From Alphaproteobacteria bacterium (GTDB lineage Bacteria; Myxococcota_A; UBA796; CAJQPC01): 64,000 nt of DNA. The translations under genes were made by a program, and so were the position numbers. The notes below the pieces were generated by a model that ran no database searches, was not told the DNA's origin, and saw nothing but the letters and a program-made list of their open reading frames with translations. The stretch is taken from contig JACKEV010000010.1 in the NCBI GenBank assembly GCA_020632795.1, positions 95,127 through 159,126 of the forward strand, given 5' to 3'. Shown one piece after another: positions 32,028 to 56,423 of the stretch; position 1 is the stretch's first letter, and every line of letters begins with the position of its first letter.

Positions 32028-32090
32028 GCTCGGCTCCGGCCTTTTCCCCTGGGGGCGGGCGTGCCCGGGCCCGCCCCCTGGAGCCCCGCC

Positions 32091-36651: not shown

Positions 36652-36655
36652 GGCC

Positions 36656-37522
36656 ATGCTGCTGAGCCTCCTTCTGTTCGGGAACACCGCTCTGGCCACC
36701 GTGGATGAGGCCTGCCTGGGCCTCGCCCGCCCCGACGACTATGACGAGCAGACCCAGGCGGACTTCCTCAACAACGCCGTGGCCCTGGCCTCGACCCTCT
36801 CACCCCTGCACGGCCCCGTGCCCCACGCGGCCGGGCGCGGATCGGTGGGGCTGGATCTCGCGGTCATCCCCCCGCTGGGCTGCCGTCACCGCATGGTGCT
36901 GGACTGGACCAAGTCCGAGGACACCAACAAGTCCCCGGTCCTGCCCCGCCCCCGGATGACCTTCGCGTTCAACCCCATCGCCGGGCGGCTGTTCCCGTAC
37001 GGTGGCGTGGCCTTCGTGCCGCCGGTCCCGGTGGCCGGGGTGCGCAGCGTGGTCGCGTCGGTCGAGGCCGGGGTGGGGGTGTATGTGGGGCAGCACGCCC
37101 AGCTCGGGGTGCGGGTCCACGGCACCCTCCAGACCGTGCTGGGGGACGTCGCGACGTCCTTTGAGGAGGACGGCCCGGTGGTCGAGGATCTGTATGTGGC
37201 GACGAGCCAGGGGGTCGACGTGATGCTCGGCTGGGAGCTGGAGCGGGTCACGCCGTACCTGGCGCTGGGCTACGCGGACGTGGGGACGTTCTTCTGGATC
37301 GGCGACGACGCCTACGTCAGCAACAACCTCCACCCCTACCTCGGCCCGGCCGCGTCATTGGGGGCGGACGCGCTCTTGTTCGACCGGCTGCGGCTGGCCG
37401 GGGAGCTGTACGCCGCGCCCGGGGGGCACACCACCCCTCGGGACAACATCGAGTCCCTGCCGGGCTTCGGCCGCTACGGCCACCTCTACACCGCGCGCCT
37501 GCGCATCGCATACGAACTCTGA
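36656..37522 (+). CDS. Secreted hypothetical protein (possible outer-membrane beta-barrel)
   Basis: MLLSLLLFGNTALA is a signal peptide. Alternating amphipathic strands; the ORF track's earlier start at 36455 is not supported. Confidence 0.45.
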   Translation: MLLSLLLFGNTALATVDEACLGLARPDDYDEQTQADFLNNAVALASTLSPLHGPVPHAAGRGSVGLDLAVIPPLGCRHRMVLDWTKSEDTNKSPVLPRPRMTFAFNPIAGRLFPYGGVAFVPPVPVAGVRSVVASVEAGVGVYVGQHAQLGVRVHGTLQTVLGDVATSFEEDGPVVEDLYVATSQGVDVMLGWELERVTPYLALGYADVGTFFWIGDDAYVSNNLHPYLGPAASLGADALLFDRLRLAGELYAAPGGHTTPRDNIESLPGFGRYGHLYTARLRIAYEL

Positions 37523-37544
37523 TCCCCCTTGAGGAGGACAATCA

Positions 37545-39385
37545 TGAACAAGTCATTCGCGATTGCAGGCATGCTGCTGCTGAGCGCCTGCGACTGCTAC
37601 TCCAACCGCTTCCCCGGAAGCTGCGCGACAGAGGACCCCACCTCCTCGACCCCGGCGGACGACTCGGCCTCCTGCGATGCCCTCGCCGCCGAGGCCCTGA
37701 CCGTCCTGAGCACCCACTGCGCGGGGTGTCACGCCAACGGGCGCGCCGAGGGCGGCTTTGACTATCTCCTGGACGTCGACAAGCTCGTCGAGCTGAACAA
37801 GGTCCGCTCCGGAGACCCGGAGGGCTCCGCCCTGTTCAACCGGATGGCCAGCGGCTCGATGCCGCCGTACGGGGAGGGGCCCTCCGACGCGGAGATCGAA
37901 GCAGTGCGAGGCTGGATCGCGTGCGGCGTGGACGCGGCCGCGCCGGAGCGGGCCTTCGTCCCCAACGAGACCGTGTTCAGTTGGATGGCCGAGGATCTGC
38001 GCGGGATCCAGGAGCCTGAGCGGATCTACATCCGCTACATCAGCCTGGTACATCTGTGGAACGCCGGGGTCGCCGAGGGGCGGCTGGACACCTACCGGGC
38101 GGGGCTGGCCAAGCTCCTGAACCACCTGTCCTGGATGCCGCGCATCACGAACCCCACGCCGGTCGACGCGGACGCGCTGCTCTACCGCATCGACCTGCGG
38201 GACTACCGCTGGCAGGCGACGACCGAGGACCCCGTCGACGCCTGGGAGACCGTGGTCGCCCGCGACCCCTACGCCTTCGCATACGACGACGCGGACTTCC
38301 GCTTCGTGGTCGAGAACACGGCGGCCCGGCAGCCCCTGCTGCACGCCGACTGGCTGGTCGCGGCGGTCGCCGTGCCCCCCCTCTACCACCGCGTCCTGGA
38401 TCTGCCGGCCCGCCAGGCCGACTTCCTGACCCTGTTCGGGGTGGATCAAGCACAGAACGTCGCGGACGCGGTGGTCGATCGCATGGGCTTCCAGCAGTCC
38501 GGGGTCTCGGACAACAACCGCGTCATCGAGCGCCACGACGCCGACTACGGCTACTGCTGGACCAGCTACGACTTCGGCGGCAACGGCGGCGCCCAGAACA
38601 TCCTGGCCGACCCGCTGGGCTTCCGCCCGGACGGCGGCGAGCTGTTCTGCAGCCTGCCCAACCACCTCCAGGCCTACCTGCTGGCCAACGCGGCCGGCGA
38701 CCGCCTGGACGTCGGCCCCGACCACATCGTGTACGACAACCTGCACGATCGGGAGGTGGTCAACGGCCTGGGCTGCATGACCTGTCACACCCGGGGCATC
38801 CTCCCCAAGGACGACCAGGTGCTGCCCTATGTGCTCGACAACGAGCACCTGTTCACCCCCCAGGAGTTGGAGCGCATCACCCTGCTCTACCCCCCCAACG
38901 ACGAGGGCCGCGCGCTCCAGGCCGCCGACCAGGCCTCCTTCCTGGAGGCGCTGGACCTCACTGGCGCCCCCCAAGCCTACGAGACCGAGCAGGTGTTCGC
39001 CCTGAGCGAGGCCTTCGCCGACGACCTCGACCTGGCCCGCGCCGCCGCAGAGGTGGGCCTGACGCCGGAGGAGCTGGAGGACCGCATCCCCTACTTCTCC
39101 GACGACGTGAAGCGGGAGCTGAACAACCTGCTCTCCCCCGGCGGGACCGTGCAGCGGGGCATCTTCCTGGGGCTGGCCCGGGAGGTCATCTGTGTGGTCG
39201 AGGGGGCCGCGGACAGCGACGGGGCGTGTCTGGATGTCGAGGGGGCCTGTGGGGCGGCGGGGGTGGCTTGCCTGGAGGGGCAGGGGTGTGTGTCCGCGCA
39301 TGAGGCGGACGCGGGGGCGTGTGTGCGCTGCGCGGTGTTGGGGGGAGCGTCGGTGAGCCTCGATCTCGATGGACAGGGTTGTTGA
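37545..39385 (+). CDS. Heme-binding lipoprotein, PSCyt-type cytochrome-c domain family
   Basis: Lipobox LLLSAC. CAGCH at residue ~60 is a CxxCH heme-binding motif; the second CxxCH-like site CMTCH follows. The N-terminal domain is PSCyt1-like (GGFDYLLD...MPP...WIACG). Confidence 0.55.
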
Positions 39386-39493
39386 GGGCTGACACAGGAT
39401 CACGACGCAGTATCCAGAGTGCACATCCGCCACAAATATTCAACGACCTCGACCAACGATAATAGAGGACTCTCCTGACACCGGAGAACGACC

Positions 39494-41113
39494 ATGAAAT
39501 CGTGCATCATTCTCGTCTTGCTCAACGGCTGCATCTTGTCCACGCTCAACAAGGACGCCCCGCCATCAGACGGCGGCGACGGCGATGGTGACGGTCAATC
39601 CGCCGTCGAGGCGGATGGTTCGGACTGCGACGACCTTGATCCGACCGTGTACGCCGGGGCACCGGAGATCTGCGACGACGGGAAGGTCAACGACTGCGTC
39701 GCCGAGCCCTGTGAGGCGGCCATCGCCTGCTGGGAGGAGACGACCAGCGAGAACGCTGATGCTTCCGTGATTGTCCCACCGAACGGTTCCGGTCAGGAGC
39801 ACCTCCGCATCGCGTCGGCCGGAGACCTGACCGGCGACGGCCACCGGGACATCCTCATCGGTTCGCCATTCCACGACGAGGACGGCAACGCAAACGTGGG
39901 CGCGGCGTTCCTCGTCGAGGGGCCGCTGTCGGGACAGATCGATCCGGCCACCGACGCGAACCGTCTTGTCGGAGCGGATGCCAACGTGAGGCTGGGCTCC
40001 GCCATCGCCACCGTGGGAGACGTGAACGGGGATGGCCATGACGATGTCCTCGTCGGGGCGTTGAACGACAGCTCCGCAGGCGAAGACGCCGGCGCAGTCC
40101 ACGTTCTGTGTCGGGGTGCCGATTGGACCGGGGCATCGCCCGGCACAGGCGTCAAGCTACTCGGAGAGGCGCCGGAAGACACCTTCGGGCACGCCCTGGC
40201 CGGGCTGGGGGATGGGAACGCCGATGGCCTGAACGACTTTGCGATCGGGGCCTGGTACCATGACGGGGCCAGCATCGACAACAGTGGCGCCGTCTACCTG
40301 ATTCATGGGAGGACTGGCTGGGGAGAAGCTGTCCACCAGCAGGTCTACCCGATCGAAGCGGTGGCCGACGCAAAGGTGTACGGCAAGTCCACGGGGGACG
40401 GCTTCGGCTTCTCCATGACCAATGCAGGGGATACCGACGGCGACGGGGTAGATGAGCTCCTGGTCGGCGCCCCGTTCGAGGATGGCGACGCCCGGCCGGA
40501 TGCAGGCGGGGCCTACCTCGTTCCGAGCGACCTCACCGGTGTTCATGTGGCCTCCGACGGCTTCGTCAGGCTCACCGGCGAGAATCAGGACGAAAACGCC
40601 GGGTTCGCGGTGGCCGGCCCTGGCGACGTCAACGCCGACGGCTATGACGACCTCTTCATCGGCGCAGACTCTGCCGGACCTGCAGGGGAAGGCGCTGCAT
40701 ACCTGCTCTTCGGCCCGACCCAGGGGCGCACGGGCCTGAAGGACGCCGCCACCACCTTCATCGGCGAGCACCCGGACTCCCGGGCCGGGTTCGCCCTATC
40801 CGGGGCCGGAGATGTGGATGGAGACGGCCTGCTGGACCTCCTCGTCGGCGCCAAGTGGGTGGACTACAGGACCACGGGTGTCGGTCGGACCTACCTGATC
40901 CTCTGCCCCTCGACCGGGACGGTGTACCTGTCCGATGTCACCTCCACCATCACCGGTGTCAAGGGGGGTGAGGAGCTCGGCGCATCTGTGGCCGGGGCCG
41001 GCGATCTGAACAACGACGGGCTTGATGACCTCTTGATTGCGGCGTGGGGAGACACAGATGGCTACAATGCTACGGGCGGCGTGGTCCACGTGTTCCACGG
41101 TCGATCCTTCTGA
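39494..41113 (+). CDS. FG-GAP repeat lipoprotein with one MopE-type motif
   Basis: MKSCIILVLLNGC lipobox. Contains GDLTGDGHRDILIGSP, GDVNGDGHDDVLVGA and further FG-GAP units. Confidence 0.7.
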   Translation: MKSCIILVLLNGCILSTLNKDAPPSDGGDGDGDGQSAVEADGSDCDDLDPTVYAGAPEICDDGKVNDCVAEPCEAAIACWEETTSENADASVIVPPNGSGQEHLRIASAGDLTGDGHRDILIGSPFHDEDGNANVGAAFLVEGPLSGQIDPATDANRLVGADANVRLGSAIATVGDVNGDGHDDVLVGALNDSSAGEDAGAVHVLCRGADWTGASPGTGVKLLGEAPEDTFGHALAGLGDGNADGLNDFAIGAWYHDGASIDNSGAVYLIHGRTGWGEAVHQQVYPIEAVADAKVYGKSTGDGFGFSMTNAGDTDGDGVDELLVGAPFEDGDARPDAGGAYLVPSDLTGVHVASDGFVRLTGENQDENAGFAVAGPGDVNADGYDDLFIGADSAGPAGEGAAYLLFGPTQGRTGLKDAATTFIGEHPDSRAGFALSGAGDVDGDGLLDLLVGAKWVDYRTTGVGRTYLILCPSTGTVYLSDVTSTITGVKGGEELGASVAGAGDLNNDGLDDLLIAAWGDTDGYNATGGVVHVFHGRSF

Positions 41114-41345
41114 CCCGACGGAGAGCCGAACCATCACTCCCCCCAATATCTGAATCAGAATTGGCTTTTCGCTGAGAAACAGAACCCACTTCGAGCCCTC
41201 ACCACCGCCGCACCAAAGGTGGTATACAGACAACCAAGTCGGGACGGGACGTTCGACAGCGCTCCAACGCGTGACACGCCGCTGAAGCGGCGCCGCTCAT
41301 GCCAGATACACAGAGCCTTCCTCCCCCAAGGGGTCGGGCTCCCAG

Positions 41346-43133
41346 GTGGCGAACGTCATGTCTCCGACGCTGTTTCTCCTCTCCGCAGCCCTCGCTCAAC
41401 AAGAGCATGCCGACACGTCCCAGCGACGCGATCTGGTCCCCCACGACGCCTCGGAGCTGTTCAGCAACAGCGGCAAGCGTTGGGCCATCGTCATCGGCGT
41501 CGACGAATATGAGAACCCGGACATCCAGGATCTGCGCTTCCCGGCGCAGGACGCGAGGAGCTTCGCCGATCGACTGGTGGGGAGCGGCGTCTACGCCGCC
41601 GAGCGGGTCCTGGTCCTCACGCCGGATCAGTCGGACCCCCGGTTGCGGCCCGACAAGAACAATATCCTGAGGGTGCTCCAGCAGCTGAAGGAGTTGGACG
41701 AGTTGGAGTCCGTGGTGTTCTTCTTCTCCGGTCATGGGGCCGCCGAGGAGCTTGAGGACGGTCGGGTCAACTACCTCTTCCCCGAGGATGCGGACGCCGG
41801 ACTGGCGAAGGATACGGCCATCCCCCTCAATAGGATACTATCGGATCTGTACGCGGTGGACGCAAAGAAGCGGTTCATCGTGCTGGACGCCTGCCGGAAC
41901 CAGGTCAGCGTAGGCAAGGGTCTGCAACCGCCAGCCTGGGAGGACCCCCGGTACGCTACCGCCGAGGGCACGTTCATCCTCTACGGTACAGCGTTCGGAA
42001 GCTATTCCTATGAATATGAGGATCTTGGCGCAGGGCTGCTCACCCACCACCTGGTACAGGGCATGGACGGGGCAGCAGACGGACTGGAGCAGTACGACGG
42101 CGTCGTCAGTGCGAGCGAACTCTACCGATACGTCAAGGAGCAGATGGAGAACGAGACCGTCCACCGACGCCACACACAGATCCCGGTACAGGCCGGTGAG
42201 AACTCCGGCGACATCCCCGTCCTGGTCGTCCCCGACTGGCGGGAGCATGTGCTCGCAACCCTCGACGTCACCCCATGCCGGACCGGCGTGCTCGTGCTCG
42301 ACGGCCGGAGCGTCGGCGTGGTCCAGCAAGGCGAGACCGAGCGGATCGAGCGGCTCCAGCCTGGACGCCATGAGCTGGCTCTGGATGGAGAGCACCGCGT
42401 GGTTGTGCTCAAGGAGGGCGAGTATCTGCCCATTCGCATGTGTCGAGAAGCGGCGACGCTGCGCATCACAACCCGCACAGCCGACGGCCGGGAGCTTCAT
42501 GTGCCGGTCAAGGTGGACGGCGCCCGCGTTGGCCGCACGCCCATCAACGTCGACCTGCCGGCCGGGAGTCATGCGCTGGAGTTGGGGTGGTGGCTCACCG
42601 ACACCGTGGACGTACCCGCAGGCGGCGACATCCCGCACGATCTGGTTGTTGAGCACCGGGGCGCCCGGAGCGTCGCTCTCACCGGCGCGGTGCTCCAAGG
42701 GGCCGGCACCGCGCTCGCTGTCGGCGCGCTGTCCCCGACCTGCGGCGCTGTCGCAGCCGGAGACCACCCGGAGGGTTGGGTCGCCGCCAACGCGGTGGGC
42801 TGGGGCACCGCAGGGCTCGGTCTCGGTCTCACGATCGCGGGAGGCCTCCGCTGGCAGGAGCCAGAGGCCTGGCTGGTCGGCGGCGCTGGTCTCGCGGCCT
42901 CTGGCCTCGGCGCGGCCCTGGGCGCGACGGGGATCTCCCACGTGCACGCCGACTCCTCCGGCACGCCCGCCTGCGTTGTCGCAGGCACCACCGATCCGCT
43001 CCGCAGCGCCGCGATCCTGGGGTGGTCGGCGGCTGGCGTGGGGGCGGCTGCGCTGGGGGTCGGGGCGTGGAGAACGCGCTCGGCATCCGTGAACATCGGC
43101 CCCGGCTGGGTCCGAATCAGCGGGCGCTTCTGA
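41346..43133 (+). CDS. Caspase-domain (peptidase C14) protein, extracytoplasmic, dyad intact
   Basis: Signal peptide, then WAIVIGVDEY...FFFSGHGA...IVLDACRNQ. Paralog of 24645..26429. Confidence 0.75.
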   Translation: MANVMSPTLFLLSAALAQQEHADTSQRRDLVPHDASELFSNSGKRWAIVIGVDEYENPDIQDLRFPAQDARSFADRLVGSGVYAAERVLVLTPDQSDPRLRPDKNNILRVLQQLKELDELESVVFFFSGHGAAEELEDGRVNYLFPEDADAGLAKDTAIPLNRILSDLYAVDAKKRFIVLDACRNQVSVGKGLQPPAWEDPRYATAEGTFILYGTAFGSYSYEYEDLGAGLLTHHLVQGMDGAADGLEQYDGVVSASELYRYVKEQMENETVHRRHTQIPVQAGENSGDIPVLVVPDWREHVLATLDVTPCRTGVLVLDGRSVGVVQQGETERIERLQPGRHELALDGEHRVVVLKEGEYLPIRMCREAATLRITTRTADGRELHVPVKVDGARVGRTPINVDLPAGSHALELGWWLTDTVDVPAGGDIPHDLVVEHRGARSVALTGAVLQGAGTALAVGALSPTCGAVAAGDHPEGWVAANAVGWGTAGLGLGLTIAGGLRWQEPEAWLVGGAGLAASGLGAALGATGISHVHADSSGTPACVVAGTTDPLRSAAILGWSAAGVGAAALGVGAWRTRSASVNIGPGWVRISGRF

Positions 43134-44809
43134 TGCTCGCCCCGCTGCTGGTCGCGGCCATCGGCTGCGCGCTCCCCCTTCTCCAGGATCAGGACAACGA
43201 CGGCTTTGGTGTCCTGGTCGACTGTGATGATGCGGACGCCGAACGGCACCCCTTCGCCAACGACGTCGCGCAGGACGGCGTCGACCAGAACTGCGACGGC
43301 GTGGACGGCACGGACGCCGACGGCGACGGCCAGGCGTCCATGGAGACTGGCGGCGAGGACTGCGATGATGCCGATGTCGACGTCTTTTCGGAAGCCCCAG
43401 AGATCTGTGGGGACGGCGTGGTCAACGACTGCGATTCCGACGCCGGGCGGGCCCTGGCGATCTGCGGTCTGTCCGGGGGCCGCTCCGTCACAGAGGCCGA
43501 CGCGCGCATGCTCGGCCGGGTCGACCACAGCAACGCGGGCTCCGCGGCGTCGGCCGTCGGAGACATGGACGGTGACGGGCTACCCGACCTCCTGATCGGC
43601 GCCCCGGTCGACGGTGGAGAGGGGGTGGTCTGGGTGATCTCCGGGATGGCCCGGGGCGATCTCACCCTGGGGACGGACACCATCGGCTCCATCCGCGGCT
43701 TGAGCGGCAACTCCCGCGCGGGGTTCGCCGTCTCAGGGGTCGGGGACATGAACGGCGACGGCTGGGACGACGTCCTGATCGGTTCTCCCTTCCAGGACAC
43801 CCAGGGCGAGGACGACGGCGCCGCGCACCTGGTGCTGGGACCGGTGAGCGGCGACCTGTCGCTGACGGCCGACGCCCACGCCACCCTGGTCGGCGAGAGC
43901 GTCAGCGATCTCGCCGGGTACGCCGTCGCCTCGGCCGGAGACATCGACGGGGACGGCCAACCCGACGTGCTGGTCACGAGCCCCGGCGACGATCAAGGTG
44001 GAGACAGCGCGGGCGCGACCTACCTGCTCCCCGGACCGCTGGAGGGGACCCTCTCGCTGGCCGTCGCCTTCAAGCTCTCCGGCGAAGAAGCTGGCGACCA
44101 GGCGGGTCACGCCGCCGCAGCCGTCGGCGACGTCGATGGTGACGGGGTGGACGACCTGCTCATCGGGTCATACCTGGCGGGTTCCGACGACCGCGGAGCG
44201 GCCTACCTCATTCTGGGCCCCGTCAGGAACTCCTTCGGCCTGCATGACGCGGATGCAAAGCTCATCGGTGACCAGGACGACTGCGGGGCCGGGCACAGCG
44301 TCGCAGCCGCCGGGGACGTGAACGGTGACGGTCTGGCCGATATCCTGGTCGGCGCGCCCTACATGGACCGGGACAGGCAGTGGGCCACCGGTGCGGCCTA
44401 TTTGGTATTCGGCCCGGTCGGCTACGGAGGTCGGCTGGCCTCCGCCCAGGCAACCCTCACGAGCAGCCGAGAAGGGTCGCTCGCAGGGTGGTCCGTGGAC
44501 AGCGCCGGGGACGTGGACGGGGACGGCCACGGCGACCTCCTCGTGGGTGCTCTGACCGACAGCCGGGCCGGGCCGGAGGCCGGAGCGGTCCACCTCGTCC
44601 GCGGCCCAGTCATCGGGCACGTCGAGCTGGCGGACGCGGACGGTCGGTTCACCGGAGCGCAGGCCTACGGGCGGCTGGGAAAGGCCGTCGCCGGGGTCGG
44701 TGATGTCGACGGAGACGGCTTCGACGACGTCCTGCTCGGTGCCCATGCTTCCGGCGAGGACCACCCCTTCCCCGGCGCCGCGTACCTGCTGCTGGGCGGC
44801 GGACTGTAG
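43133..44809 (+). CDS. MopE-motif + FG-GAP repeat lipoprotein
   Basis: ATG overlaps the caspase stop (TGATG at 43131-43135). MLAPLLVAAIGC lipobox; multiple FG-GAP units. Confidence 0.7.
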   Translation: MLAPLLVAAIGCALPLLQDQDNDGFGVLVDCDDADAERHPFANDVAQDGVDQNCDGVDGTDADGDGQASMETGGEDCDDADVDVFSEAPEICGDGVVNDCDSDAGRALAICGLSGGRSVTEADARMLGRVDHSNAGSAASAVGDMDGDGLPDLLIGAPVDGGEGVVWVISGMARGDLTLGTDTIGSIRGLSGNSRAGFAVSGVGDMNGDGWDDVLIGSPFQDTQGEDDGAAHLVLGPVSGDLSLTADAHATLVGESVSDLAGYAVASAGDIDGDGQPDVLVTSPGDDQGGDSAGATYLLPGPLEGTLSLAVAFKLSGEEAGDQAGHAAAAVGDVDGDGVDDLLIGSYLAGSDDRGAAYLILGPVRNSFGLHDADAKLIGDQDDCGAGHSVAAAGDVNGDGLADILVGAPYMDRDRQWATGAAYLVFGPVGYGGRLASAQATLTSSREGSLAGWSVDSAGDVDGDGHGDLLVGALTDSRAGPEAGAVHLVRGPVIGHVELADADGRFTGAQAYGRLGKAVAGVGDVDGDGFDDVLLGAHASGEDHPFPGAAYLLLGGGL

Positions 44810-44848
44810 CCAAACTCACCAGCCGCAACCATCCAAAGGAGCTGCACG

Positions 44849-46525
44849 TTGTCCCCTGCCCTCTTCCTGCTCGTCGCCTGTGGGGCCGATCTGATCCGAG
44901 ACACAGACGCCGACGGGTACATCGATGCCCTGGACTGCCAGCCCTACAACCCTTCGGTCAACCCCAGCGCGAACGACGCGACAGGGGACGGCGTCGATCA
45001 GAACTGTGACGGTGTCGATGGCACCGACGTTGACGGGGACGGCCAAGCCTCCGTGGAGTCCGGGGGAGAGGACTGTAATGATTGGGATCCACTGGCCTAC
45101 ACAGGCGCGTACGAGACTTGCGAGGACAGGATCGTATCGGATTGCGCGCTGACCATCCGCGAGGCGAGCGCCCTCTGTTGGGGGGATCTGAGCTTGGCGG
45201 AGGCGCACTTCAGAGTGTACGGCGAGATGCCCTCTGAAGAGATCGGGGTATCCGTCGCGGGCGCCGGAGATGTCAACGGGGACGGTTTCAATGACCTGAT
45301 CCTGGGGTCCTGGGGCGACACACCCAACGGGCCCTGGTCCGGCTCCTCCCATGTGGTCTATGGACCCTTGACCGGATCAGCGGATATCAGCGCGACCAGC
45401 GACGCGCGACTGGAGGGCGAGGCCGAGGGCGACTTCGCAGGTCACCGCGTGGCCGGTACAGGCGACTTCAATGGGGACGGCTTCGACGACGTCCTCGTCG
45501 GAGCCCATGACAACGACGAGGGAGGCGCGCACGCCGGCGCCGCCTACCTCATCCTGGGCCCGGTGTCGGGAACAATGGGCCTCGCGGACGCCCCGCTCAA
45601 GCTCCTGGGTGAGCGCGCTGGCGCGTGGGCCGGCTGGGCCGTCGCCCCCGCGGGGGACGTGAACGACGACGGCTACCAGGACATCCTGGTCGGTGCCACC
45701 GCGACGGCGAGCGAAGCCGACGGCCTGGGCGCCGTCCACCTCATCCTCGGCCAGGAATTGAGCACCGACGAGGTTCGCTCCCTCTCGGAGGCCGACGCCA
45801 CCCTGCGCGGCGTCACCTGGAACGATGCGACGGGCGTGTCTACCACAGGTGGGGGTGATCTCAATGGAGATGGCCTGGACGATCTCCTGGTGGGCGCGAA
45901 CGAGGTGCTTCCTGGCGGCCCTGGCGTCGTCTACGCTGTCATGTCCCCGGTTTACGGCGACTTCGACCTCCGAGATGCCGACGCCACCCTCCGCGGAGAA
46001 TCTCCCTACGACACCGTCGGCGAGTCCGTGGCCAGCGCTGGCGACGTAGACGGCGACGGAAACGCAGACGTGCTCATCGGTGCCCCCCAGGGCGTCGACC
46101 CGCACTTGGGCCCCGGCCGCGCGTATCTGGTCCTGGGCCCTCTGTGGGGAGAGCGTCCTCTGGACACCGCCGACGCGGTGTTGGTGGGTGAAGCCTACGG
46201 GGACCGAGCAGGCTATTCGGTGGCTGCGGCTGGCGATGTGAATGGGGATCAGCACGCCGATCTTCTTGTCGGCACGTACCAGGCGCTGAGAGCGGACGAC
46301 CCACCTGGTCTGGCCTACCTCGTACTTGGGCCGGTCAGCGGACATGTGGATCTTGGAGAGGCCGACGGCCGTCTCGTCGGAGAGTCCACGCACGGCCGCG
46401 CCGGCTTCTCGGTGGCCAGCGCGGGTGACGTCAACGGAGACGGCCTCGACGACCTCCTGATCGGTGCAATCGGTGAGCGGGAATTCGCAGGCGCAGCCTA
46501 CGTCTTCCACGGCAGGAGCTACTGA
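44849..46525 (+). CDS. MopE-motif + FG-GAP repeat lipoprotein
   Basis: TTG start with AAGGAG 7 nt upstream. LLVACG lipobox; FG-GAP units throughout. Confidence 0.7.
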   Translation: MSPALFLLVACGADLIRDTDADGYIDALDCQPYNPSVNPSANDATGDGVDQNCDGVDGTDVDGDGQASVESGGEDCNDWDPLAYTGAYETCEDRIVSDCALTIREASALCWGDLSLAEAHFRVYGEMPSEEIGVSVAGAGDVNGDGFNDLILGSWGDTPNGPWSGSSHVVYGPLTGSADISATSDARLEGEAEGDFAGHRVAGTGDFNGDGFDDVLVGAHDNDEGGAHAGAAYLILGPVSGTMGLADAPLKLLGERAGAWAGWAVAPAGDVNDDGYQDILVGATATASEADGLGAVHLILGQELSTDEVRSLSEADATLRGVTWNDATGVSTTGGGDLNGDGLDDLLVGANEVLPGGPGVVYAVMSPVYGDFDLRDADATLRGESPYDTVGESVASAGDVDGDGNADVLIGAPQGVDPHLGPGRAYLVLGPLWGERPLDTADAVLVGEAYGDRAGYSVAAAGDVNGDQHADLLVGTYQALRADDPPGLAYLVLGPVSGHVDLGEADGRLVGESTHGRAGFSVASAGDVNGDGLDDLLIGAIGEREFAGAAYVFHGRSY

Positions 46526-48312
46526 TGACATCCCGAACCGCGGCCCTTCATCTGCACTCCCTCATTCTTCTCTGCATCGGATGCGGTCCGGATCGAGACC
46601 ACGACGGGTGGGCAGACCCGGCGGACTGCGAGCCCGAGCGCTACAGCATCCACCCTGGCGCCGACGACCTGACCCAGGACGGCATTGACCAGGACTGCGA
46701 CGGCGTAGACGGCACAGACCTGGACGGTGACGGACAAGCCTCCCTGAGGAGCGGTGGCGCTGACTGTGATGATCAAGACGCCACCGTCTACGCGGGCGCC
46801 GAAGACATCTGCCTCAACGGCGTGAGGGAGGACTGTGACAAGCGCGACGCGCTACCTGGCCCGCACAAGCGCTTCTCCCGGCCGTTGACCTTGAGCGAGC
46901 AAAGCCTGCTGCTCCCTGGCTTGGAGGCCTACGGCTTCCACGGCCGCTCCGCGAGCGGCGCTGGAGACGCCGACGGAGACGGGGTGGCCGGAGATGTACT
47001 GATCGGCGCGTTCAAGGTGGACGGATCCGCCACAGACAGCGGTGCGGCCTACCTCTACAGCGCTGTAGACCTGCGACAGGGCATCGCGTCACCGAGGACC
47101 ACCATCGTCGGAGAGAACGCGCACGATCTGGCCGGGTTCGCGGTGGCCGGTCTCGGAGACGTCAACGGGGACGGCACCGACGATCTGCTCATCAGCGCGC
47201 ACGCCTCGAGCATGGCCGCCGAAGGGGCCGGTGCTGTCTACCTGATCCTCGGGCCGGTGACCGGTGCGCAGTTGGACCTCGCGAACGCTCCCGTCAAGCT
47301 CCTTGGCCAGGACAGGTCCATGAACGTCGGCAGTCATCTGGCGAGCGCCGGAGATTTCAACGGCGACGGGCTTCAGGATCTTGCGGTCGACTCGGTATCC
47401 GGCATCAGATCCTACGGTGACGTGGCGGTGCTGTTGGGTTCGGAGGACTGGCACCCCGATGATCCCCTCACCATCGGCTTCTCGGAAGCGGAGCTGAGCA
47501 TCCGGGGCGACCTCTCCTGGCGGGAATCCGGAGCATGGTTCGCGCTGGCGTCGGCCGGGGACATCAACGGGGATGGGCTGGACGACCTGCTCGTGGGCGC
47601 CACAAAGAGCGACAAATGCAGGGAGGCCGCCTGGGCTGGTGCGGCGGCCTTGTTCCTGGGCGACGAGCGCGCTGGGGGCCTGCTGTCCTGGCGCGACGCC
47701 GCCCTCCGAATGGAGGGCGTGAGCCCCGGAGACTGCGCCGGCTCGGCCGTGGCCGCAGGCGACCTGGACGGCGACGGCTGGCCGGAGTTGGTGATCGGCG
47801 CTGAACGTGTCCACAGGGACGATCCCAAACAGTACAACGGGGCCGTCTACGTGGTGGACCTGGAAGAGGAGGGAATGAACACGGAGGGGCCGTTGGCGAT
47901 GACCTTGGACGACGCGACCGCGACCTGGTACGGCGAGCCGGGCGACGGGTCAGCGTCAGCGTTGCCCGGCGACGCTGCTGGGAAGTCCATCGCTGCGGTG
48001 CGACGCTGCGACGAGCGAGCAGACCTCCTGATCGGACGGCCAAAGGGTGGCGTCGACTCCGAAGGCGCGGCCAGCCTCGTCACCTACAGCGGACCGGGCA
48101 CCTTCAACCTCACCGACCGAGGTGTTGACCTGCTCGGAAACACCGGCAGTTCCGAGACCGGCAACCATGTGGCGAGCGCGGGCGACGTTGACGGCGACGG
48201 CTGGGAAGACCTGCTCATCGGCGCACACCAGCTCCGGGGTGACCTGGACGGGGACGGTTCCTTTGGGGACAACGCGGTGGGCGGCGCCTACCTGCTGCTG
48301 ACGGGTCCGTGA
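46525..48312 (+). CDS. MopE-motif + FG-GAP repeat lipoprotein
   Basis: ATG overlaps the previous stop (TGATG at 46523-46527). LILLCIGC lipobox; FG-GAP units. Confidence 0.7.
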   Translation: MTSRTAALHLHSLILLCIGCGPDRDHDGWADPADCEPERYSIHPGADDLTQDGIDQDCDGVDGTDLDGDGQASLRSGGADCDDQDATVYAGAEDICLNGVREDCDKRDALPGPHKRFSRPLTLSEQSLLLPGLEAYGFHGRSASGAGDADGDGVAGDVLIGAFKVDGSATDSGAAYLYSAVDLRQGIASPRTTIVGENAHDLAGFAVAGLGDVNGDGTDDLLISAHASSMAAEGAGAVYLILGPVTGAQLDLANAPVKLLGQDRSMNVGSHLASAGDFNGDGLQDLAVDSVSGIRSYGDVAVLLGSEDWHPDDPLTIGFSEAELSIRGDLSWRESGAWFALASAGDINGDGLDDLLVGATKSDKCREAAWAGAAALFLGDERAGGLLSWRDAALRMEGVSPGDCAGSAVAAGDLDGDGWPELVIGAERVHRDDPKQYNGAVYVVDLEEEGMNTEGPLAMTLDDATATWYGEPGDGSASALPGDAAGKSIAAVRRCDERADLLIGRPKGGVDSEGAASLVTYSGPGTFNLTDRGVDLLGNTGSSETGNHVASAGDVDGDGWEDLLIGAHQLRGDLDGDGSFGDNAVGGAYLLLTGP

Positions 48313-48511: not shown

Positions 48512-48769
48512 TCAACAATACCTTCCGTAGACACAAATCACTTCCGCTCCCCTGACGTCTGCCGATTGGCAATAACATATGCCTGCGTCAACGTTAAGGT
48601 TATACAAACAAACCTCGGCACACACGTCCAGCGGCAACGTACCCTCGACCCCACCCGTCACGATTCCCTCCTCCTCCAACCCTTCGGTCGACAGATAGAC
48701 GGAGGCCGTCTCCCTGACGCCGAACTTGCACAACCATCCATCCCCAATTTCAAGGGAACCGTCATGCAT
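48512..48769 (-). CDS. Small Cys-rich protein, family copy A (no signal peptide, possibly decayed)
   Basis: WLCKFGVRETASVYLSTEGLEEE...GVEGTLPLDVCAEVCLYNLNVDAGICYCQSADVRGAEVICVYGRYC. The Cys pattern is shared with copies B-D. Confidence 0.4.
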   Translation of the reverse strand: MHDGSLEIGDGWLCKFGVRETASVYLSTEGLEEEGIVTGGVEGTLPLDVCAEVCLYNLNVDAGICYCQSADVRGAEVICVYGRYC

Positions 48770-49190: not shown

Positions 49191-49526
49191 TCAGCAGATT
49201 TCTTCAACGTAGCAATCAAAATCAGCCCCCCCATCATCTGTCAAGAAAAATGCGCACTCCGTGGTCTCAATATTTGCGTGCTCTATACAAATTGACCGAC
49301 AAACATCACCAGGTCCCGTACCCTCTGGGACCACAAATTCATAATCTATCGTCTCCAATTCCTCCGCCGACAGGTGAATGGTACTATACCTGGGTGGTCC
49401 CCAACCACAACAGGCTCCATTCGAAAATAGCGAGACCATCCACGTCATCCAGATTTGCCAATGAAAACGGGGCCGTGTCCTGACACTTCGACTTGATGTG
49501 TCGTTCGTTGACGAAATCCTGATCAT
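49191..49526 (-). CDS. Small Cys-rich protein, family copy B (most diverged)
   Basis: GACCGWG...YSTIHLSAEELETID...DVCRSICIEHANIETTECAFFLTDDGGADFDCYVEEIC. Cys and SAEEL positions are conserved with copy D despite DNA divergence. Confidence 0.4.
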   Translation of the reverse strand: MIRISSTNDTSSRSVRTRPRFHWQIWMTWMVSLFSNGACCGWGPPRYSTIHLSAEELETIDYEFVVPEGTGPGDVCRSICIEHANIETTECAFFLTDDGGADFDCYVEEIC

Positions 49527-49868: not shown

Positions 49869-51168
49869 CGCTCTTCCGAAACCCCGTTGACCTGGGCGTC
49901 CTTGAGGATCATGCTGCCGGCTCCCGACACCATGGAGCCCACATGTCCTCGTCCTCTTCCCGCCGCCGCGCCCGTGAGGCGGGCGCTCGCCGCAAGGCCA
50001 TCTCTCGCGCGCAGGCGATGTCCGCCAAGCAGGTCCACGGCTTCGTGGACGAGTTGTTCGGCGAGGACCTGCACGCCAAGCGGGTCGGCACGCTGGCGGA
50101 TGGGACGTTGGGGGTGCTGCACGCCGCGTCGCTGGGCATCCACGCCATCGGCCGGGGTCTCGCGTCGGCCAAGGGTCTTTCGGACAAGCACGCGGTCAAG
50201 CAGGTGGACCGCTGCATCGGCAACGAGGCCATCGACGTGGAGCCGCTGCAGACCCGGCTGGTGAAACGTCTGCTCGCAGGCCGGGAGGAAGCCACGGTGA
50301 ACTTGGACTGGACGGAGTTCGACAAGGACGACCAGTCCACGCTGATGCTGAGTCTGCAGACCTCGCACGGTCGCGCCCAGCCCCTGATGTGGAAGACCGT
50401 GGTGAAGTCCGAGCTGGCCGGCCAGATGAACGACCACGAGGACGCCCTGCTGACGCGCTTCGCAGCGGCGGTACCCGAGGGCGTCCGCGTGACCGTCGTC
50501 GCAGACCGAGGCTTCGGCGATCAGGCGCTCTTCGACTTCCTGTCCGAGTTGGGCTTGGACTACATCATCCGCATTCGAGGGTGCATCCACGTCACCGACA
50601 AGACTGGGGAGACGAAGCGCGCCGACGCCTGGGTCGGCAAGGGGGGCCGCCTCCGCGCCCTGCCCGAGGCCCGGGTCACAGACGACAAGACACCCGTGGG
50701 TGTGGTCGTCGTCGTGCGCGACAAGGGCATGAAGGACACCTGGTGCCTCGTCGCCAGCGACCCCGAGTGGCGAGGCGCCGACGTCAAGCGCCGATACGGC
50801 AAGCGCTTCTCCTGCGAGGAGACCTTCCGCGACCTCAAGGACCCTCGCTTCGGCTTCGGACTCCGTCACACCCGCCTCTCCAGCCCCTTGCGTCGCGATC
50901 GCCTCATCTTGCTGGCCGTCCTCGCACAGGCACTCCTCACCTTGCTCGGGGAGGCCGGCGAGGCCGTCGGCCTCGACCGCGTCCTCAAGACCAACACCTC
51001 CAGACGACGCACCATGTCCCTCCTTCGACAGGGGATGCGGTGGTACGAACGCATCGGGACCATGCCCGAGGAGTGGCTCCTCGCGCTCATGACCTCCTTC
51101 GAGAGGATGCTGCGGGAAGACACTTTGTTTCAGGGATTTCTCGGGCTGGAGGCAGAATGAGGGGATGC
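49817..51168 (+). mobile_element. IS4-family insertion sequence (about 1.35 kb)
   Basis: Imperfect terminal inverted repeats: GCATCCCCCTGA / ATCCCCTCA at 49816-49839 versus TGAGGGGATGC at 51158-51168. It encloses the DDE transposase ORF. Confidence 0.45.
49943..51160 (+). CDS. IS4-family DDE transposase
   Basis: VVADRGFGD (second-Asp region) and YGKRFSCEETFRDLKD (a Y-R-E-K-type motif) are typical of IS4-family transposases. Confidence 0.8.
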   Translation: MSSSSSRRRAREAGARRKAISRAQAMSAKQVHGFVDELFGEDLHAKRVGTLADGTLGVLHAASLGIHAIGRGLASAKGLSDKHAVKQVDRCIGNEAIDVEPLQTRLVKRLLAGREEATVNLDWTEFDKDDQSTLMLSLQTSHGRAQPLMWKTVVKSELAGQMNDHEDALLTRFAAAVPEGVRVTVVADRGFGDQALFDFLSELGLDYIIRIRGCIHVTDKTGETKRADAWVGKGGRLRALPEARVTDDKTPVGVVVVVRDKGMKDTWCLVASDPEWRGADVKRRYGKRFSCEETFRDLKDPRFGFGLRHTRLSSPLRRDRLILLAVLAQALLTLLGEAGEAVGLDRVLKTNTSRRRTMSLLRQGMRWYERIGTMPEEWLLALMTSFERMLREDTLFQGFLGLEAE

Positions 51169-51356: not shown

Positions 51357-51683
51357 TCAACAATACCTTTCGTAAACACAGGTGATCTCCGCTCCCGAAT
51401 GATCCGCAGAGTGGTAGCAACACAACTCCGTGTCGATACCAATATATTCATCACATACACTCACGCAAACTTCCAGCGGCAAGGTTCCTTCAACCCCAGT
51501 CGGAGCAATTTCGTCTTGCTCCAGTTCCTCGGTAGACAGGAAGAAGGTGCTCGTTTCCCGAACGCCGAACTTGCAGCAACCATCCGTCCCCATGTTCAGG
51601 GGAATCGTCATGCATACGATAAGGAACGACCTGATTGTCGTACGATGAGCCCACTTGTCCCAACTCATGATGTTCACCTCCAT
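51357..51683 (-). CDS. Small Cys-rich protein, family copy C
   Basis: MTIPLNMGTDGCCKFGVRETSTFFLSTEELEQDE...VCVSVCDEYIGIDTELCCYHSADHSGAEITCVYERYC. Its upstream 60 bp duplicate the region upstream of copy A. Confidence 0.5.
   Translation of the reverse strand: MEVNIMSWDKWAHRTTIRSFLIVCMTIPLNMGTDGCCKFGVRETSTFFLSTEELEQDEIAPTGVEGTLPLEVCVSVCDEYIGIDTELCCYHSADHSGAEITCVYERYC
51612..51680. repeat. Duplicated 5' region of Cys-rich gene copy C
   Basis: See 48770-48835. Confidence 0.55.
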
Positions 51684-51709: not shown

Positions 51710-51973
51710 TCAACAGTACCGTTCATAATAACAGGTGACGTCCGCGCCACCGTCGGCGGTCCTGATGTACACGCAATCGTCTGAAGTGATGTGCACATAA
51801 TCTCCACACAACACCTCGCAAACGTACGGTGGAGGAACGCCATTGTCGTCGTTGAATCTATTGTCAACTTCGTCCAGCTCTTCAGCCGAGAGGTAGGCTG
51901 TCTTCTCCTCCCATACTCCGAACTTGCAGCACCCCGCCAGCACGACGGTCATCAGGCCCCATGCGATGGCGAC
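51710..51973 (-). CDS. Small Cys-rich lipoprotein, family copy D (start at MVAIAWG)
   Basis: MVAIAWGLMTVVLAGCCKFGV has a canonical LAGC lipobox. The mature protein is about 65 aa with 8 Cys and ends ...CYYERYC. Confidence 0.5.
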   Translation of the reverse strand, partial: VAIAWGLMTVVLAGCCKFGVWEEKTAYLSAEELDEVDNRFNDDNGVPPPYVCEVLCGDYVHITSDDCVYIRTADGGADVTCYYERYC

Positions 51974-52022
51974 CATCCTGGGTGTTCCTTCCATCCTCAA
52001 CCTCCTGACGACCTGTCCTGGT

Positions 52023-52109
52023 CGGGTCCCTCGCAGCATACCCGCTCCGACGGGGCCTCGTCGCCCGCGGATCCGCCGATCTCATCGGGGAGAGACCTGC
52101 GCTCCTCGG
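52023..52109. repeat. About 90-bp repeat, copy 2, immediately upstream of Cys-rich lipoprotein gene D
   Basis: See copy 1. It lies 50-135 bp upstream of the MVAIAWG start of copy D. Confidence 0.6.
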
Positions 52110-54505: not shown

Positions 54506-54536
54506 CCCATCCTGGTACCCGAAAGGGGCCGGCGGT

Positions 54537-56423
<1,887 letters not shown>

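Follow-up and report, generated by a model that had tools for sequence, protein, structure and literature searches.

A caspase gene coupled to FG-GAP/MopE lipoprotein genes: a pairing limited to a narrow clade of apparently exported orthocaspase-like proteases

On one strand of the 64-kb stretch of DNA analyzed here (the window), a caspase gene is followed by a tandem array of three genes for FG-GAP/MopE lipoproteins. Does this arrangement reflect a systematic association between the two families, or do they merely lie together? We find that the link is real but limited to a narrow, rare clade of orthocaspase-like proteases that are apparently exported. The pairing recurs in the few related uncultured bacteria, and the lipoproteins thus offer rare candidates for a partner or substrate of a bacterial caspase.

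All four ORFs lie on the plus strand, as first described: the caspase gene (41358-43133; 591 aa), lipoprotein 1 (43133-44809; 558 aa; lipobox AIGC; nested in a longer ORF starting at 42776), lipoprotein 2 (44849-46525; 558 aa; lipobox LVAC), and lipoprotein 3 (46525-48312; 595 aa; lipobox CIGC). The original prediction began the caspase at 41346, an alternative GTG start (ORF 41346-43133); the NCBI gene call (P0001, 591 aa) begins at ATG 41358, which is the more likely start. The TGATG overlaps proposed at 43131 and 46523 are both present, between the caspase and lipoprotein 1 (43131-43135, plus strand, reading cttcTGATGctc) and between lipoproteins 2 and 3 (46523-46527, plus strand, reading ctacTGATGaca). 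At each junction the stop codon (TGA) and the start codon (ATG) have one base in common, and an AGGAG lies 7 nt 5′ of the lipoprotein 3 ATG. The stop TAG of lipoprotein 1 ends at 44809, which leaves a gap of 39 nt, not 40, to the TTG of lipoprotein 2. The AAGGAG-TTG start given for this gene is there (44836-44851, plus strand: Shine-Dalgarno AAGGAG at 44836-44841, a 7-nt spacer, and TTG at 44849), and no alternative in-frame start codon occurs in the gap before this TTG. As far as sequence signals go, these stop/start overlaps and the Shine-Dalgarno/TTG start agree with the operon-like coupling originally proposed for the caspase and lipoprotein genes.

Pfam matches lipoproteins 1, 2, and 3 to FG-GAP with 148, 133, and 93 bits (7, 7, and 5 matched repeats) and to Cu-binding_MopE with 45, 40, and 45 bits. 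The domains are those predicted, with about seven FG-GAP units, except that each protein has two MopE matches and not one. In the AF2 model of lipoprotein 1 (pLDDT 91.9), a seven-bladed propeller extends across residues 115-553, and its best Foldseek matches are integrin alpha propellers (E about 1e-19). This protein has a pI of 4.05 and 10 DxDxDG-like motifs; over the lipoproteins there are 7-11 such motifs, with a pI of about 4. Lipoproteins 1 and 2 are 43%-44% identical, and the FG-GAP/MopE lipoprotein family is very large (>5,453 matches at E <1e-20).

The caspase scores 60.5 bits for Peptidase_C14 (cut-off 21.4) and 21.9 bits for PEGA (cut-off 20.8) in Pfam, and alignment shows its catalytic residues to be intact (His in SGHG, Cys in DACRN). 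The order of its parts is a short signal peptide, the caspase domain, two PEGA-like beta-sandwiches, four Gly/Ala-rich hydrophobic helices, and a C-terminal hairpin. AF2 models residues 40-295 with pLDDT >90 and the sandwiches at 304-365 and 371-433; the C-terminal helices (439-572) are of low confidence (pLDDT <50). The best Foldseek matches are metacaspases and MALT1, and the fold is nearest to Yca1 and the Candida metacaspases. A conserved Asp falls at the Yca1 "ND" motif in the alignment, which suggests a specificity for Arg/Lys. The full-length architecture (signal peptide, two PEGA-like domains, and four-helix Gly/Ala-rich C terminus) is found in only three representatives (P0001, P0002, and P0147) out of 1.84 billion. 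Signal peptides are predicted in every member of the close clade, but these are shorter than usual and have no basic n-region. By the positive-inside rule, the four C-terminal helices would put the caspase domain in the cytoplasm, in conflict with the signal peptide, which makes the topology ambiguous. Among the 150 closest caspase representatives none is fused to FG-GAP; three of the 69 nearest carry WD40 fusions, and P0006 carries a Kelch fusion.

The array is the distal end of a single cluster (about 20.1-48.3 kb) that contains all of the caspase, pseudo-caspase, and FG-GAP genes. Upstream of the caspase on the plus strand lies a fourth FG-GAP/MopE lipoprotein gene (39494-41113; 539 aa; lipobox-like LNGC; FG-GAP 115.7 bits in Pfam), which two independent Logan assemblies span jointly with the caspase. 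It is preceded by a plus-strand gene (37529-39385) for a lipoprotein whose N-terminal domain is monohaem cytochrome c-like (CAGCH, MPP; Cytochrome_CBB3 24.6 bits, slightly under the Pfam cut-off of 27, and a weak cytochrome c6 match), followed by about 480 aa of unassigned C-terminal sequence. Conservation in the cluster is highest for hyp36455 (36455-37522, plus strand), which gave no match in Pfam, NCBIfam, or PDB. Next are a pseudo-caspase (34622-36238, plus strand) with the catalytic His kept and Cys replaced by Val and with weak Pfam matches to CHAT and, C-terminally, DUF4384; the small conserved protein hyp33079 (33079-33552, minus strand); and a DUF4423/TIGR02147-family protein (32061-33104, plus strand; DUF4423 50.7 bits in Pfam, TIGR02147 87 bits in NCBIfam against a cut-off of 50).

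The minus-strand arm is headed by a Lon-protease C-terminal (S16)-like protein that lacks the ATPase domain (30040-31467; Lon_C 34.6 bits in Pfam; the NCBIfam Lon models score far under their cut-offs). There follow on the same strand a second Cys-to-Val pseudo-caspase with DUF4384 (28508-29887; DUF4384 39.2 bits and a weak Peptidase_C14 match of 22.7 bits in Pfam) and an FG-GAP/MopE lipoprotein (26500-28431; 643 aa from the lipobox start; FG-GAP 130 bits and three MopE matches). The longest ORF of the latter runs to 28875, but MRGLLLVGLMVQGC (lipobox MVQGC) places its start at about 28431, clear of the pseudo-caspase gene. Beyond it are an active caspase paralogue with the same full-length architecture (P0002; 24645-26429; 594 aa; 76.1 bits in Pfam; 46%-47% identical to the 41358 caspase), a protein with six MopE matches and an RCC1 beta-propeller (21701-24010; MopE 174.8 bits, RCC1_2 90 bits in Pfam), and a third active caspase (20094-21704; 536 aa; DACHAG; 49.5 bits in Pfam), divergent at 23% identity, whose start is overlapped by the stop of the MopE/RCC1 gene by 4 nt. 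Pfam thereby supports the domains of the two further pairings that had been pointed out, at 26500-29887 (pseudo-caspase/FG-GAP) and 20094-24010 (MopE/RCC1/caspase). The propeller type differs between pairings (FG-GAP or RCC1), while the pairing with a caspase persists. The FG-GAP gene at 39494-41113, the active caspase at 24645-26429, the pseudo-caspase at 34622-36238, and the membership of all these genes in one cluster are additions to the earlier description.

Such clustering is far above chance for a 64-kb window, and tandem paralogy accounts for much of it. The caspases match their adjacent propeller genes in GC3 (0.60/0.59 for 20094-21704 and 21701-24010, 0.82/0.74, and 0.78-0.86), whereas native genes have values of 0.88-0.99. 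An IS element and low-GC genes adjoin the array. The likeness of each caspase to its neighbor favors the pairing. The lower GC and the IS element, together with several divergent paralogues in both families, the pseudo-enzymes, and the Lon-like protease, could instead point to a conflict or self-recognition system (kin discrimination, fratricide, or surface programmed cell death) in which propellers would be polymorphic surface receptors and caspases the effectors. Prokaryotic conflict systems commonly have caspase-domain effectors (PMC7159879), and exported metacaspases have been suggested to act outside the cell in fratricide (PMC3501461). We consider this unlikely: PADLOC returns only a generic caspase domain match with no system partner, the NCBIfam model for EACC1-associated caspases reaches 66 bits where the cut-off is 140, the cluster has no NTPase/STAND, vWA, or toxin domain, no close relative was found on plasmids, and paralogues with 36%-44% identity are old rather than recently diversifying.

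The pairing recurs in relatives. The nearest full-length homologue of the 41358 caspase, the 596-aa P0147 of locus L128, has the same architecture at 41% identity, and directly 3′ of it lies an FG-GAP lipoprotein gene joined by the same TGATG overlap (2492-2496). In L129, an FG-GAP/MopE gene is followed after a 13-bp gap by caspase P0152 (42% identity), an order shared with the 39494/41358 pair and found with the same gap in L130 and L131. L129 is a contig from another sample in which most core cluster genes recur in near-syntenic order, with the GC3 likeness between caspase and propeller partner, and their unlikeness to native genes, repeated there. The pseudo-caspases are shared between the two clusters: The orthologue of 34622-36238 is 42% identical and also has the D-x-V-H motif. 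The hyp36455 orthologue (61% identical) stands beside a cytochrome c-like gene, the orthologue of the 37529-39385 lipoprotein being 43% identical with CxxCH kept. A counterpart of hyp33079 (L129 16898-17326; 39% identical over 79 residues) occupies the equivalent relative position, the DUF4423 protein has an orthologue, and a 30% identical counterpart of the Lon_C-like protein heads the run. A third context, L005 (41% identity), has three tandem caspases, the third with a signal peptide, and beside them an FG-GAP lipoprotein gene in convergent orientation. Myxococcota is a plausible taxon for comparison, as the bins of the closest relatives are assigned to Myxococcota_A UBA2385, although NCBI labels the source MAG Alphaproteobacteria.

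An FG-GAP gene lies within 3.3 kb in five of six close-clade contexts but in none of 116 loci (1.13 Mb) around more distant caspase homologues. Likewise, none of four independent FG-GAP/MopE neighborhoods contains a caspase, although three of them (L124, L125, and L127) have at least two FG-GAP/MopE genes, two of these being tandem arrays. The association originally proposed extends beyond the window (L128, L129, and L005), but these counts speak against its being systematic among caspases or FG-GAP proteins at large. The supporting loci are few and possibly non-independent, since L128 comes from the window's own sample and L129 is an orthologous locus.

These counts leave some room for the families being co-located and co-regulated yet functionally independent, as envelope families that duplicate in tandem in a variable region of lower GC, with the adjacency in L128 and L129 being one ancestral, unselected arrangement. 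The caspase-free FG-GAP/MopE neighborhoods and the absence from all of the distant caspase loci both favor this, as do the caspase arrays in L003/L004 and L123 that have no FG-GAP gene as immediate neighbor, a protein with six MopE matches elsewhere in the window with no caspase nearby, and the IS element and low-GC genes. The FG-GAP paralogues of the window, moreover, are no nearer to each other than to homologues outside it, so independent recruitment cannot be shown. Against it, the one-base TGATG junction is retained at only 41% protein identity, the pair in L129 has been inverted as one unit with its adjacency retained, the adjacency in L005 lies outside the syntenic cluster, and RCC1, a different propeller class, is paired with a caspase by a 4-nt overlap of its own. 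In the sampled flanks of clade caspases, furthermore, the sole FG-GAP gene is the immediate neighbor, in both L129 and L005. On balance, we regard functional independence as possible but the less probable reading.

The reading we prefer, with a probability of about 0.5, is a lineage-restricted cell-envelope cluster in which orthocaspase-type cysteine proteases, apparently exported and probably anchored in a membrane, are paired with calcium-binding lipoproteins that form seven-bladed beta-propellers, the propeller being the extracytoplasmic partner. The overlapping caspase and three FG-GAP lipoprotein genes would be transcribed as one message and translationally coupled. To judge from their sequences, all products would be exported, the caspase through its short cleavable signal peptide and probably held at the membrane by the Gly/Ala-rich C-terminal helices, and the propellers lipid-anchored at the lipobox Cys on a disulfide-rich MopE-type stalk. 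The propeller may serve as a recognition or regulatory subunit, encoded by its own gene but equivalent to the WD40 and Kelch propellers that some related caspases carry as fusions. It may instead be a substrate processed at a few Arg sites, although the FG-GAP family alignment shows no obvious conserved basic site for cleavage. Like characterized orthocaspases and metacaspases, the protease would cut after Arg or Lys, as suggested by its intact His/Cys dyad and by the conserved Asp aligned to the Yca1 "ND" motif. The syntenic upstream genes (the two Cys-to-Val DUF4384 pseudo-caspases, the haem c lipoprotein, hyp36455, and the Lon_C-like and DUF4423 proteins) probably belong to the same system.

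The roles might conceivably be reversed, with the lipoproteins as the main actors (adhesins or matrix receptors that bind calcium or metal) and the caspase only a gingipain-like protease for their maturation or shedding. The integrin-like fold, the DxDxDG motifs and the low pI would suit this, and a single caspase gene is flanked by four lipoprotein genes; its Ig-like PEGA domains resemble those of many surface proteases, and the FG-GAP array in L124 adjoins a different secreted protease (924 aa, trypsin-like). However, no protease gene adjoins the FG-GAP genes in L125 and L127, two of the three multi-gene neighborhoods sampled, and the family alignment, including the stalk-propeller linker, shows no evident conserved basic cleavage site. 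This least probable of the readings is also a special case of the protease-propeller partnership rather than a true alternative to it.

Among the closest known systems are the prokaryotic orthocaspases and metacaspase-like proteases (MEROPS C14, e.g., MaOC1 of Microcystis; PMC3501461, PMC6426788), with which the caspase shares Peptidase_C14 and the intact His/Cys dyad. Operons with several caspases, signal-like helices at the N terminus, and partnership with PEGA, FGE-sulfatase, or DUF4384 have been described before (PMC3501461) or occur in relatives. The clade stands apart in its combination of parts (a signal peptide, a pair of PEGA-like domains, and four Gly/Ala-rich C-terminal helices) and in its genetic coupling to beta-propeller lipoproteins, for which we found no precedent in the literature searched. 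The pseudo-caspases resemble pseudo-orthocaspases (PMC6426788) in a caspase fold that has lost a catalytic residue and is kept beside active paralogues, and DUF4384 is a known partner domain; here, however, only Cys is lost, with Val in its place (D-x-V-H, a state shared by the window and L129), and His is kept, whereas the cyanobacterial variants described have Tyr/Ser. Caspase-WD40 and caspase-Kelch fusions (e.g., metacaspase-NACHT-WD40; PMC3501461) likewise join a caspase domain to a beta-propeller, but as single, presumably cytoplasmic polypeptides with another propeller class, whereas the propeller here is separate and predicted to be lipid-anchored and exported.

The lipoproteins share seven FG-GAP blades and DxDxDG calcium-binding loops with bacterial FG-GAP proteins and with the integrin alpha beta-propeller (top Foldseek integrin matches alpha5, alphaIIb, and alphaV, E about 1e-19, at a sequence identity of about 19%). 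Unlike integrin alpha, these bacterial lipoproteins carry a six-Cys MopE-type module at the N terminus and have neither thigh or calf domains nor a beta-subunit partner. The MALT1 paracaspase, among the top Foldseek matches of the caspase (E about 1e-12), also has an Ig-like beta-sandwich directly after the caspase domain, and the DACRN around the catalytic Cys resembles DMCRK of MALT1. MALT1 is eukaryotic and cytosolic, with death and Ig domains N-terminal to its caspase domain, and at 11%-13% sequence identity the likeness is one of structure, not of membership. Gingipains (clan CD, family C25) are surface cysteine proteases with an Ig-like domain that process associated adhesin modules after Arg or Lys. 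They offer a functional analogy only, with no homology claimed: They belong to another family, are secreted by the T9SS route, and carry their adhesin domains within the same polyprotein.

Four plus-strand open reading frames, a caspase gene followed by three FG-GAP/MopE lipoprotein genes, lie at 41346-43133, 43133-44809, 44849-46525, and 46525-48312, just as the original prediction had placed them, and their domain assignments are confirmed by Pfam. The stop of the caspase gene and the start of the first lipoprotein gene have one base in common in cttcTGATGctc (TGATG, 43131-43135); a second TGATG (46523-46527) joins lipoprotein genes 2 and 3 likewise, with AGGAG 7 nt 5′ of the ATG. Between lipoprotein genes 1 and 2 the expected AAGGAG (44836-44841) and TTG start (44849) are present, this TTG being the sole in-frame start codon on offer for gene 2, but the spacing is 39 nt rather than the 40 bp predicted. 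The caspase frame is indeed open from GTG 41346; in the database the gene (P0001, 591 aa) begins at ATG 41358. Stops and starts thus overlap or are closely spaced on one strand across the array, the structure of a translationally coupled operon. A scan for promoters and terminators, of low power at this GC content, gave counts not above those in shuffled controls; the single terminator match within the array falls inside the caspase gene.

Peptidase_C14 (PF00656; cut-off 21.4 bits) is matched at 60.5 bits by the caspase of the array, at 76.1 by the protein of 24645-26429, which is 46-47% identical to it with the same full-length architecture, and at 49.5 by that of 20094-21704. The His-Cys dyad is intact in these three active paralogues (SGHG/STHG and DACRN/DACHAG) and also in P0003, P0004, P0147 (the nearest full-length homologue), and P0152 (a caspase at 42% identity). 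In the AF2 model of the array caspase, the caspase domain (residues 40-295, pLDDT >90) is followed by two beta-sandwich domains (304-365 and 371-433) and, all at low confidence, by four Gly/Ala-rich helices (439-572) and a terminal hairpin. A PEGA match (PF08308) is marginal, at 21.9 bits against a cut-off of 20.8; domains of the PEGA or CarboxypepD_reg type are carried by 10 of 69 relatives. The catalytic domain has the caspase-haemoglobinase fold, with Foldseek matches to metacaspases, MALT1, and caspases (E 1e-12 to 1e-8), of which fungal metacaspases and MALT1 are nearest. The metacaspase Yca1 is retrieved by phmmer, and the invariant Asp69 (AQDA) of the caspases aligns with its "ND" motif, a single mapped pocket position. 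Together with the published specificity of orthocaspases for basic residues (PMC6426788), this alignment suggests that the caspases in the window would cleave after basic residues.

Signal-peptide-like N-termini are present in all caspases of the clade (e.g., cut between AQA and QE or between ARA and ED), so that export is likely. Localization calls for caution, however, since these signal peptides are unusually short and have no basic residues, and since the C-terminal helices, read by the positive-inside rule, would give the opposite topology. In this lineage, caspases and FG-GAP lipoproteins alike have signal peptides with 10-12 residues before the Cys or AxA site and no basic n-region (in the window, 41358-41420, 43133-43170, and 44849-44885; on L128, the contig of P0147, 2494-2530). 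Three further caspase-fold proteins, 28508-29887 and 34622-36238 in the window and 10845-12269 on L129 (one of three near-syntenic contigs carrying P0152), retain the His and have Val in place of the catalytic Cys, and are thus pseudo-orthocaspases.

The three downstream lipoproteins match FG-GAP (PF01839) at 148, 133, and 93 bits, and a fourth, encoded upstream of the caspase at 39494-41113, at 116 bits, with 7, 7, 5, and 6 matched repeats, respectively, in line with the predicted seven or so units per protein. One MopE motif per lipoprotein was an underestimate: Pfam gives two matches in each of the three downstream proteins (PF11617, 40-45 bits against a cut-off of 27), and the fourth scores 25.6, below the cut-off. 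The motif is a Cys-rich module common in these lineages and not evidence of copper binding. It is absent from the partner lipoprotein on L128. A gene at 6492-8549 (+) with six MopE motifs and native composition (GC3 0.99) adjoins a GDSL lipase and has no caspase nearby, which shows MopE modules to be general among secreted proteins of this genome.

Lipidation is predicted from lipobox Cys motifs (AIGC, LVAC, CIGC, LNGC, and VQGC), the first three of which belong to the three downstream proteins and follow short hydrophobic N-termini. Beyond the lipobox, lipoproteins 1 and 2 have six similarly spaced Cys and lipoprotein 3 has five at corresponding positions. The lipoproteins are very acidic (pI about 4.05; Asp 12-15%, Lys 0.2-1.7%) and contain 7-11 DxDxDG motifs each, which are predicted to form calcium-binding loops. 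The one lipoprotein modelled with AF2, that of 43133-44809, is a seven-bladed propeller (pLDDT 91.9, pTM 0.85), with integrin alpha propellers as the nearest solved structures (Foldseek, E about 1e-19). An adhesin-centred reading, with the caspase merely the maturation protease of the lipoproteins, seems to us quite improbable; an alignment of 40 FG-GAP sequences contains no invariant Arg or Lys column that could mark a basic cleavage site. The FG-GAP/MopE family is very large (>5,453 matches at E <1e-20). The FG-GAP paralogues of the window have bit scores similar to one another and to outside homologues, a result that speaks neither for nor against independent recruitment of the paralogues.

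Two further pairings in the window had been predicted, and both are present. At 26500-29887, the pseudo-caspase 28508-29887, which combines the caspase fold with DUF4384 and lacks the catalytic Cys, is paired with an FG-GAP/MopE lipoprotein gene (26500-28431); at 20094-24010, the gene for a protein with six MopE motifs and an RCC1 propeller (21701-24010) and the caspase gene after it (20094-21704) overlap, stop on start. Three genes had escaped the prediction: the upstream FG-GAP/MopE lipoprotein gene (39494-41113, +; from Pfam), the second active caspase (24645-26429, -), and a second pseudo-caspase with DUF4384 (34622-36238, +), the last two from Pfam and alignment. With these, the cluster consists of two diverging arms. 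The minus arm, from 31467 down to 20094, encodes a Lon_C-like protein, a pseudo-caspase, an FG-GAP protein, a caspase, a MopE/RCC1 protein, and a caspase; the plus arm, from 34622 to 48312, encodes a pseudo-caspase, a conserved protein (36455-37522) with no Pfam, NCBIfam, or PDB sequence match, a cytochrome c-like lipoprotein, an FG-GAP protein, a caspase, and the three FG-GAP proteins. Between the arms are a DUF4423/TIGR02147 gene and small genes without assigned function.

Native genes of the window have a GC3 of 0.88-0.99, a composition shared by the pseudo-caspases, the cytochrome c-like gene, and the genes without assigned function. The caspase and propeller genes are lower, every caspase matching its neighbour: 0.60 and 0.59 for 20094 and 21701, 0.82 and 0.74 for 24645 and 26500, and 0.78-0.86 from 39494 through 48312. 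The same contrast is seen on L129. For the genes of 20094-24010, a GC3 of about 0.6 against 0.9-0.99 suggests acquisition from a lower-GC source; GC steps abruptly from 77.7% to 60% at the left edge of the cluster (about 20,000). No tRNA gene marking an integration site is present in the window, and a mobile-element origin was rejected after tblastn against plasmids gave only distant caspase homologues (25-32% identity).

A low-GC patch directly 3′ of the FG-GAP array contains an IS transposase gene (49943-51160, +; DDE_Tnp_1, 45.6 bits). On either side of it lie four small paralogous Cys-rich minus-strand ORFs (48512-48769, 49191-49526, 51357-51683, and 51710-52039; 85-111 aa, GC 48-56%) with ends such as CVYGRYC, CVYERYC, CYYERYC, and CYVEEIC, one of them with a lipobox-like LAGCC; a Pfam scan of two of them (48512-48769 and 51710-52039) gave no match. 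Beyond these, 52211-54757 (-) encodes an 848-aa metallo-beta-lactamase/beta-CASP/RMMBL RNase fused to a C-terminal LOG/Lysine_decarbox (SLOG) domain, a combination that looks unusual. The source MAG is labelled Alphaproteobacteria bacterium at NCBI, but the bins that contain the nearest relatives of the cluster genes are assigned to Myxococcota_A UBA2385, Deltaproteobacteria, or Myxococcota. The high GC, the many MopE motifs, and the TIGR02147/DUF4423 gene are in keeping with this second placement.

The association of caspase and FG-GAP genes holds in a narrow sense, within the close clade. An exhaustive HMMER search over 1.84 billion representatives returned only 54 proteins at E <1e-30, and the sole further full-length homologue is P0147 (41% identity). 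Its gene is followed on L128 by an FG-GAP lipoprotein gene (lipobox LSLAC) through an identical TGATG overlap. Upstream of the P0152 gene, found on three contigs from another study, a gene for a 932-aa FG-GAP/MopE protein stops 13 bp before the caspase start. This locus is flanked by orthologues of the two pseudo-caspases (42% and 35% identity), the conserved protein of 36455 (61%), a small protein of 33079 (39%), the cytochrome c-like lipoprotein (43%, CxxCH kept), the Lon_C-like protein (30%), and the DUF4423 protein (29%), in nearly the gene order of the window, with the FG-GAP/caspase pair inverted as one unit. Also on L129, upstream of the pair, a caspase gene fragment of about 130 aa (1755-2156, -), with 31-37% identity to the caspases of the window, is probably what remains of a decayed paralogue.

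At locus L005 (41% identity), a convergent FG-GAP lipoprotein gene adjoins a tandem of three caspases, of which the third has a signal peptide. On a Myxococcota_A UBA2385 contig (L003/L004), an FG-GAP_3/MopE/ASPIC gene is 3.2 kb away from a caspase/DUF4384/caspase-FGE-sulfatase array. The array there is a near-perfect tandem repeat of about 5 kb in at least two copies (caspase, 393 aa; DUF4384, 348 aa; caspase-FGE-sulfatase, 844 aa), followed by one more caspase-FGE-sulfatase gene (841 aa). The contig of the caspase array L123 is too short for a verdict on an FG-GAP neighbour. Across the six close-clade contexts, which are few and partly related by descent, with L128 coming from the window's own sample, an FG-GAP gene lies within 3.3 kb in five and is the immediate neighbour in four. 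The comparative support is a handful of short contigs from uncultured organisms of a rare clade.

Among more distant caspases the association, which the original prediction took to be systematic, fails. We collected loci with a caspase-domain profile, 37 in species-representative genomes and 80 in metagenomes, all at ≤41% identity, and scanned them with an HMM of the window FG-GAP proteins, filters off. Only L005 gave a strong match; the other 116 loci (1.13 Mb) contain no FG-GAP gene, and broad co-occurrence is thereby rejected. A weak match came from L004, a locus outside this set that was reached through a protein look-up. Conversely, no caspase is present in four independent FG-GAP/MopE neighbourhoods, which have four overlapping genes (L124), three (L125), two (L127), and one (L042). 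The main rival reading, clearly the second choice, is that these are two unrelated envelope families whose adjacency is explained by shared ancestry and tandem expansion. The coupling itself is kept at 41% identity and through an inversion.

The run on L124 (7081-20029; ENA TAOJ22-1 scaffold_867) has three of its four genes annotated as FG-GAP/MopE; the second (784 aa, no Pfam family) shares 76% identity with the first across 483 residues. The run is divergent from an adjoining gene for a 924-aa trypsin-like protease, and on L003 the caspase array has a Trypsin_2 gene next to it. From these single cases, a secreted protease with an FG-GAP array may be a wider theme that includes another protease class.

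We consider an envelope module of protease and partner the best account of the array, with a probability of about one-half. The caspase and lipoprotein genes, whose overlaps are visible in the sequence, would be co-translated and their products exported, and the propeller lipoprotein would be either a substrate that the caspase processes or a subunit that helps it in recognition or regulates it. The pairing, and often the overlap, persists whether the partner is FG-GAP with MopE, FG-GAP without MopE, or RCC1, which suggests that the propeller rather than the MopE motif is what counts. A Rosetta-stone search found no caspase-FG-GAP fusion among the 150 closest caspase representatives. The propeller fusions that do occur are to WD40 (three of 69 relatives) and Kelch (P0006), with no other propeller class, and by analogy lend weak backing to a module of protease and partner.

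Each domain family in the cluster is already known, and its proteins belong to the C14, FG-GAP, and lipoprotein classes but not to the EACC1-type conflict caspases or any PADLOC system. The NCBIfam model for the EACC1-associated caspase (NF047832, cut-off 140) gives 52-75 bits in the five caspase-like proteins covered, a set without 28508-29887, and the cluster yielded no EACC1 partner. Apart from a CRISPR-Lon match that is very weak (17.8 bits), PADLOC returned only the generic "caspase" model PDLC02987 and no system-specific component, so membership of a known defence system was rejected. This lack of a defence signature in PADLOC and NCBIfam speaks against a surface conflict or recognition system, which we regard as unlikely. 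Exported and transmembrane-bearing prokaryotic metacaspases, multi-caspase operons of Deltaproteobacteria, and pseudo-orthocaspases are documented, as are DUF4384, PEGA, and FGE-sulfatase partners of caspases (PMC3501461, PMC6426788), which are also seen among the relatives here. We found no paper linking FG-GAP proteins to bacterial caspase homologues, and none describing the conserved cluster or translational coupling between a caspase gene and genes for beta-propeller lipoproteins.

Natural substrates and partners are unknown for nearly all bacterial caspase homologues, and this is the main barrier to understanding their role outside eukaryotic cell death. The locus ties a caspase to a small, defined set of predicted exported proteins and suggests that one clade of caspases works at the envelope instead of in the cytoplasm. 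What makes it useful is that candidates for binding or cleavage can be listed by name and tested: the four lipoproteins, the two pseudo-caspases, and the haem protein. Because a haem c lipoprotein, propellers, pseudo-caspases, and caspases share one conserved cluster, it might be imagined, as the most speculative and least probable of our readings, that the cluster is an as yet undescribed extracytoplasmic proteolytic signalling system, in which membrane-anchored caspases would be controlled by separately encoded propeller lipoproteins, Cys-to-Val pseudo-caspases, and the c-type haem lipoprotein. Such a system would be a formal, independently evolved envelope parallel to the eukaryotic logic of cytochrome c, the Apaf-1 WD40 propeller, and caspase.
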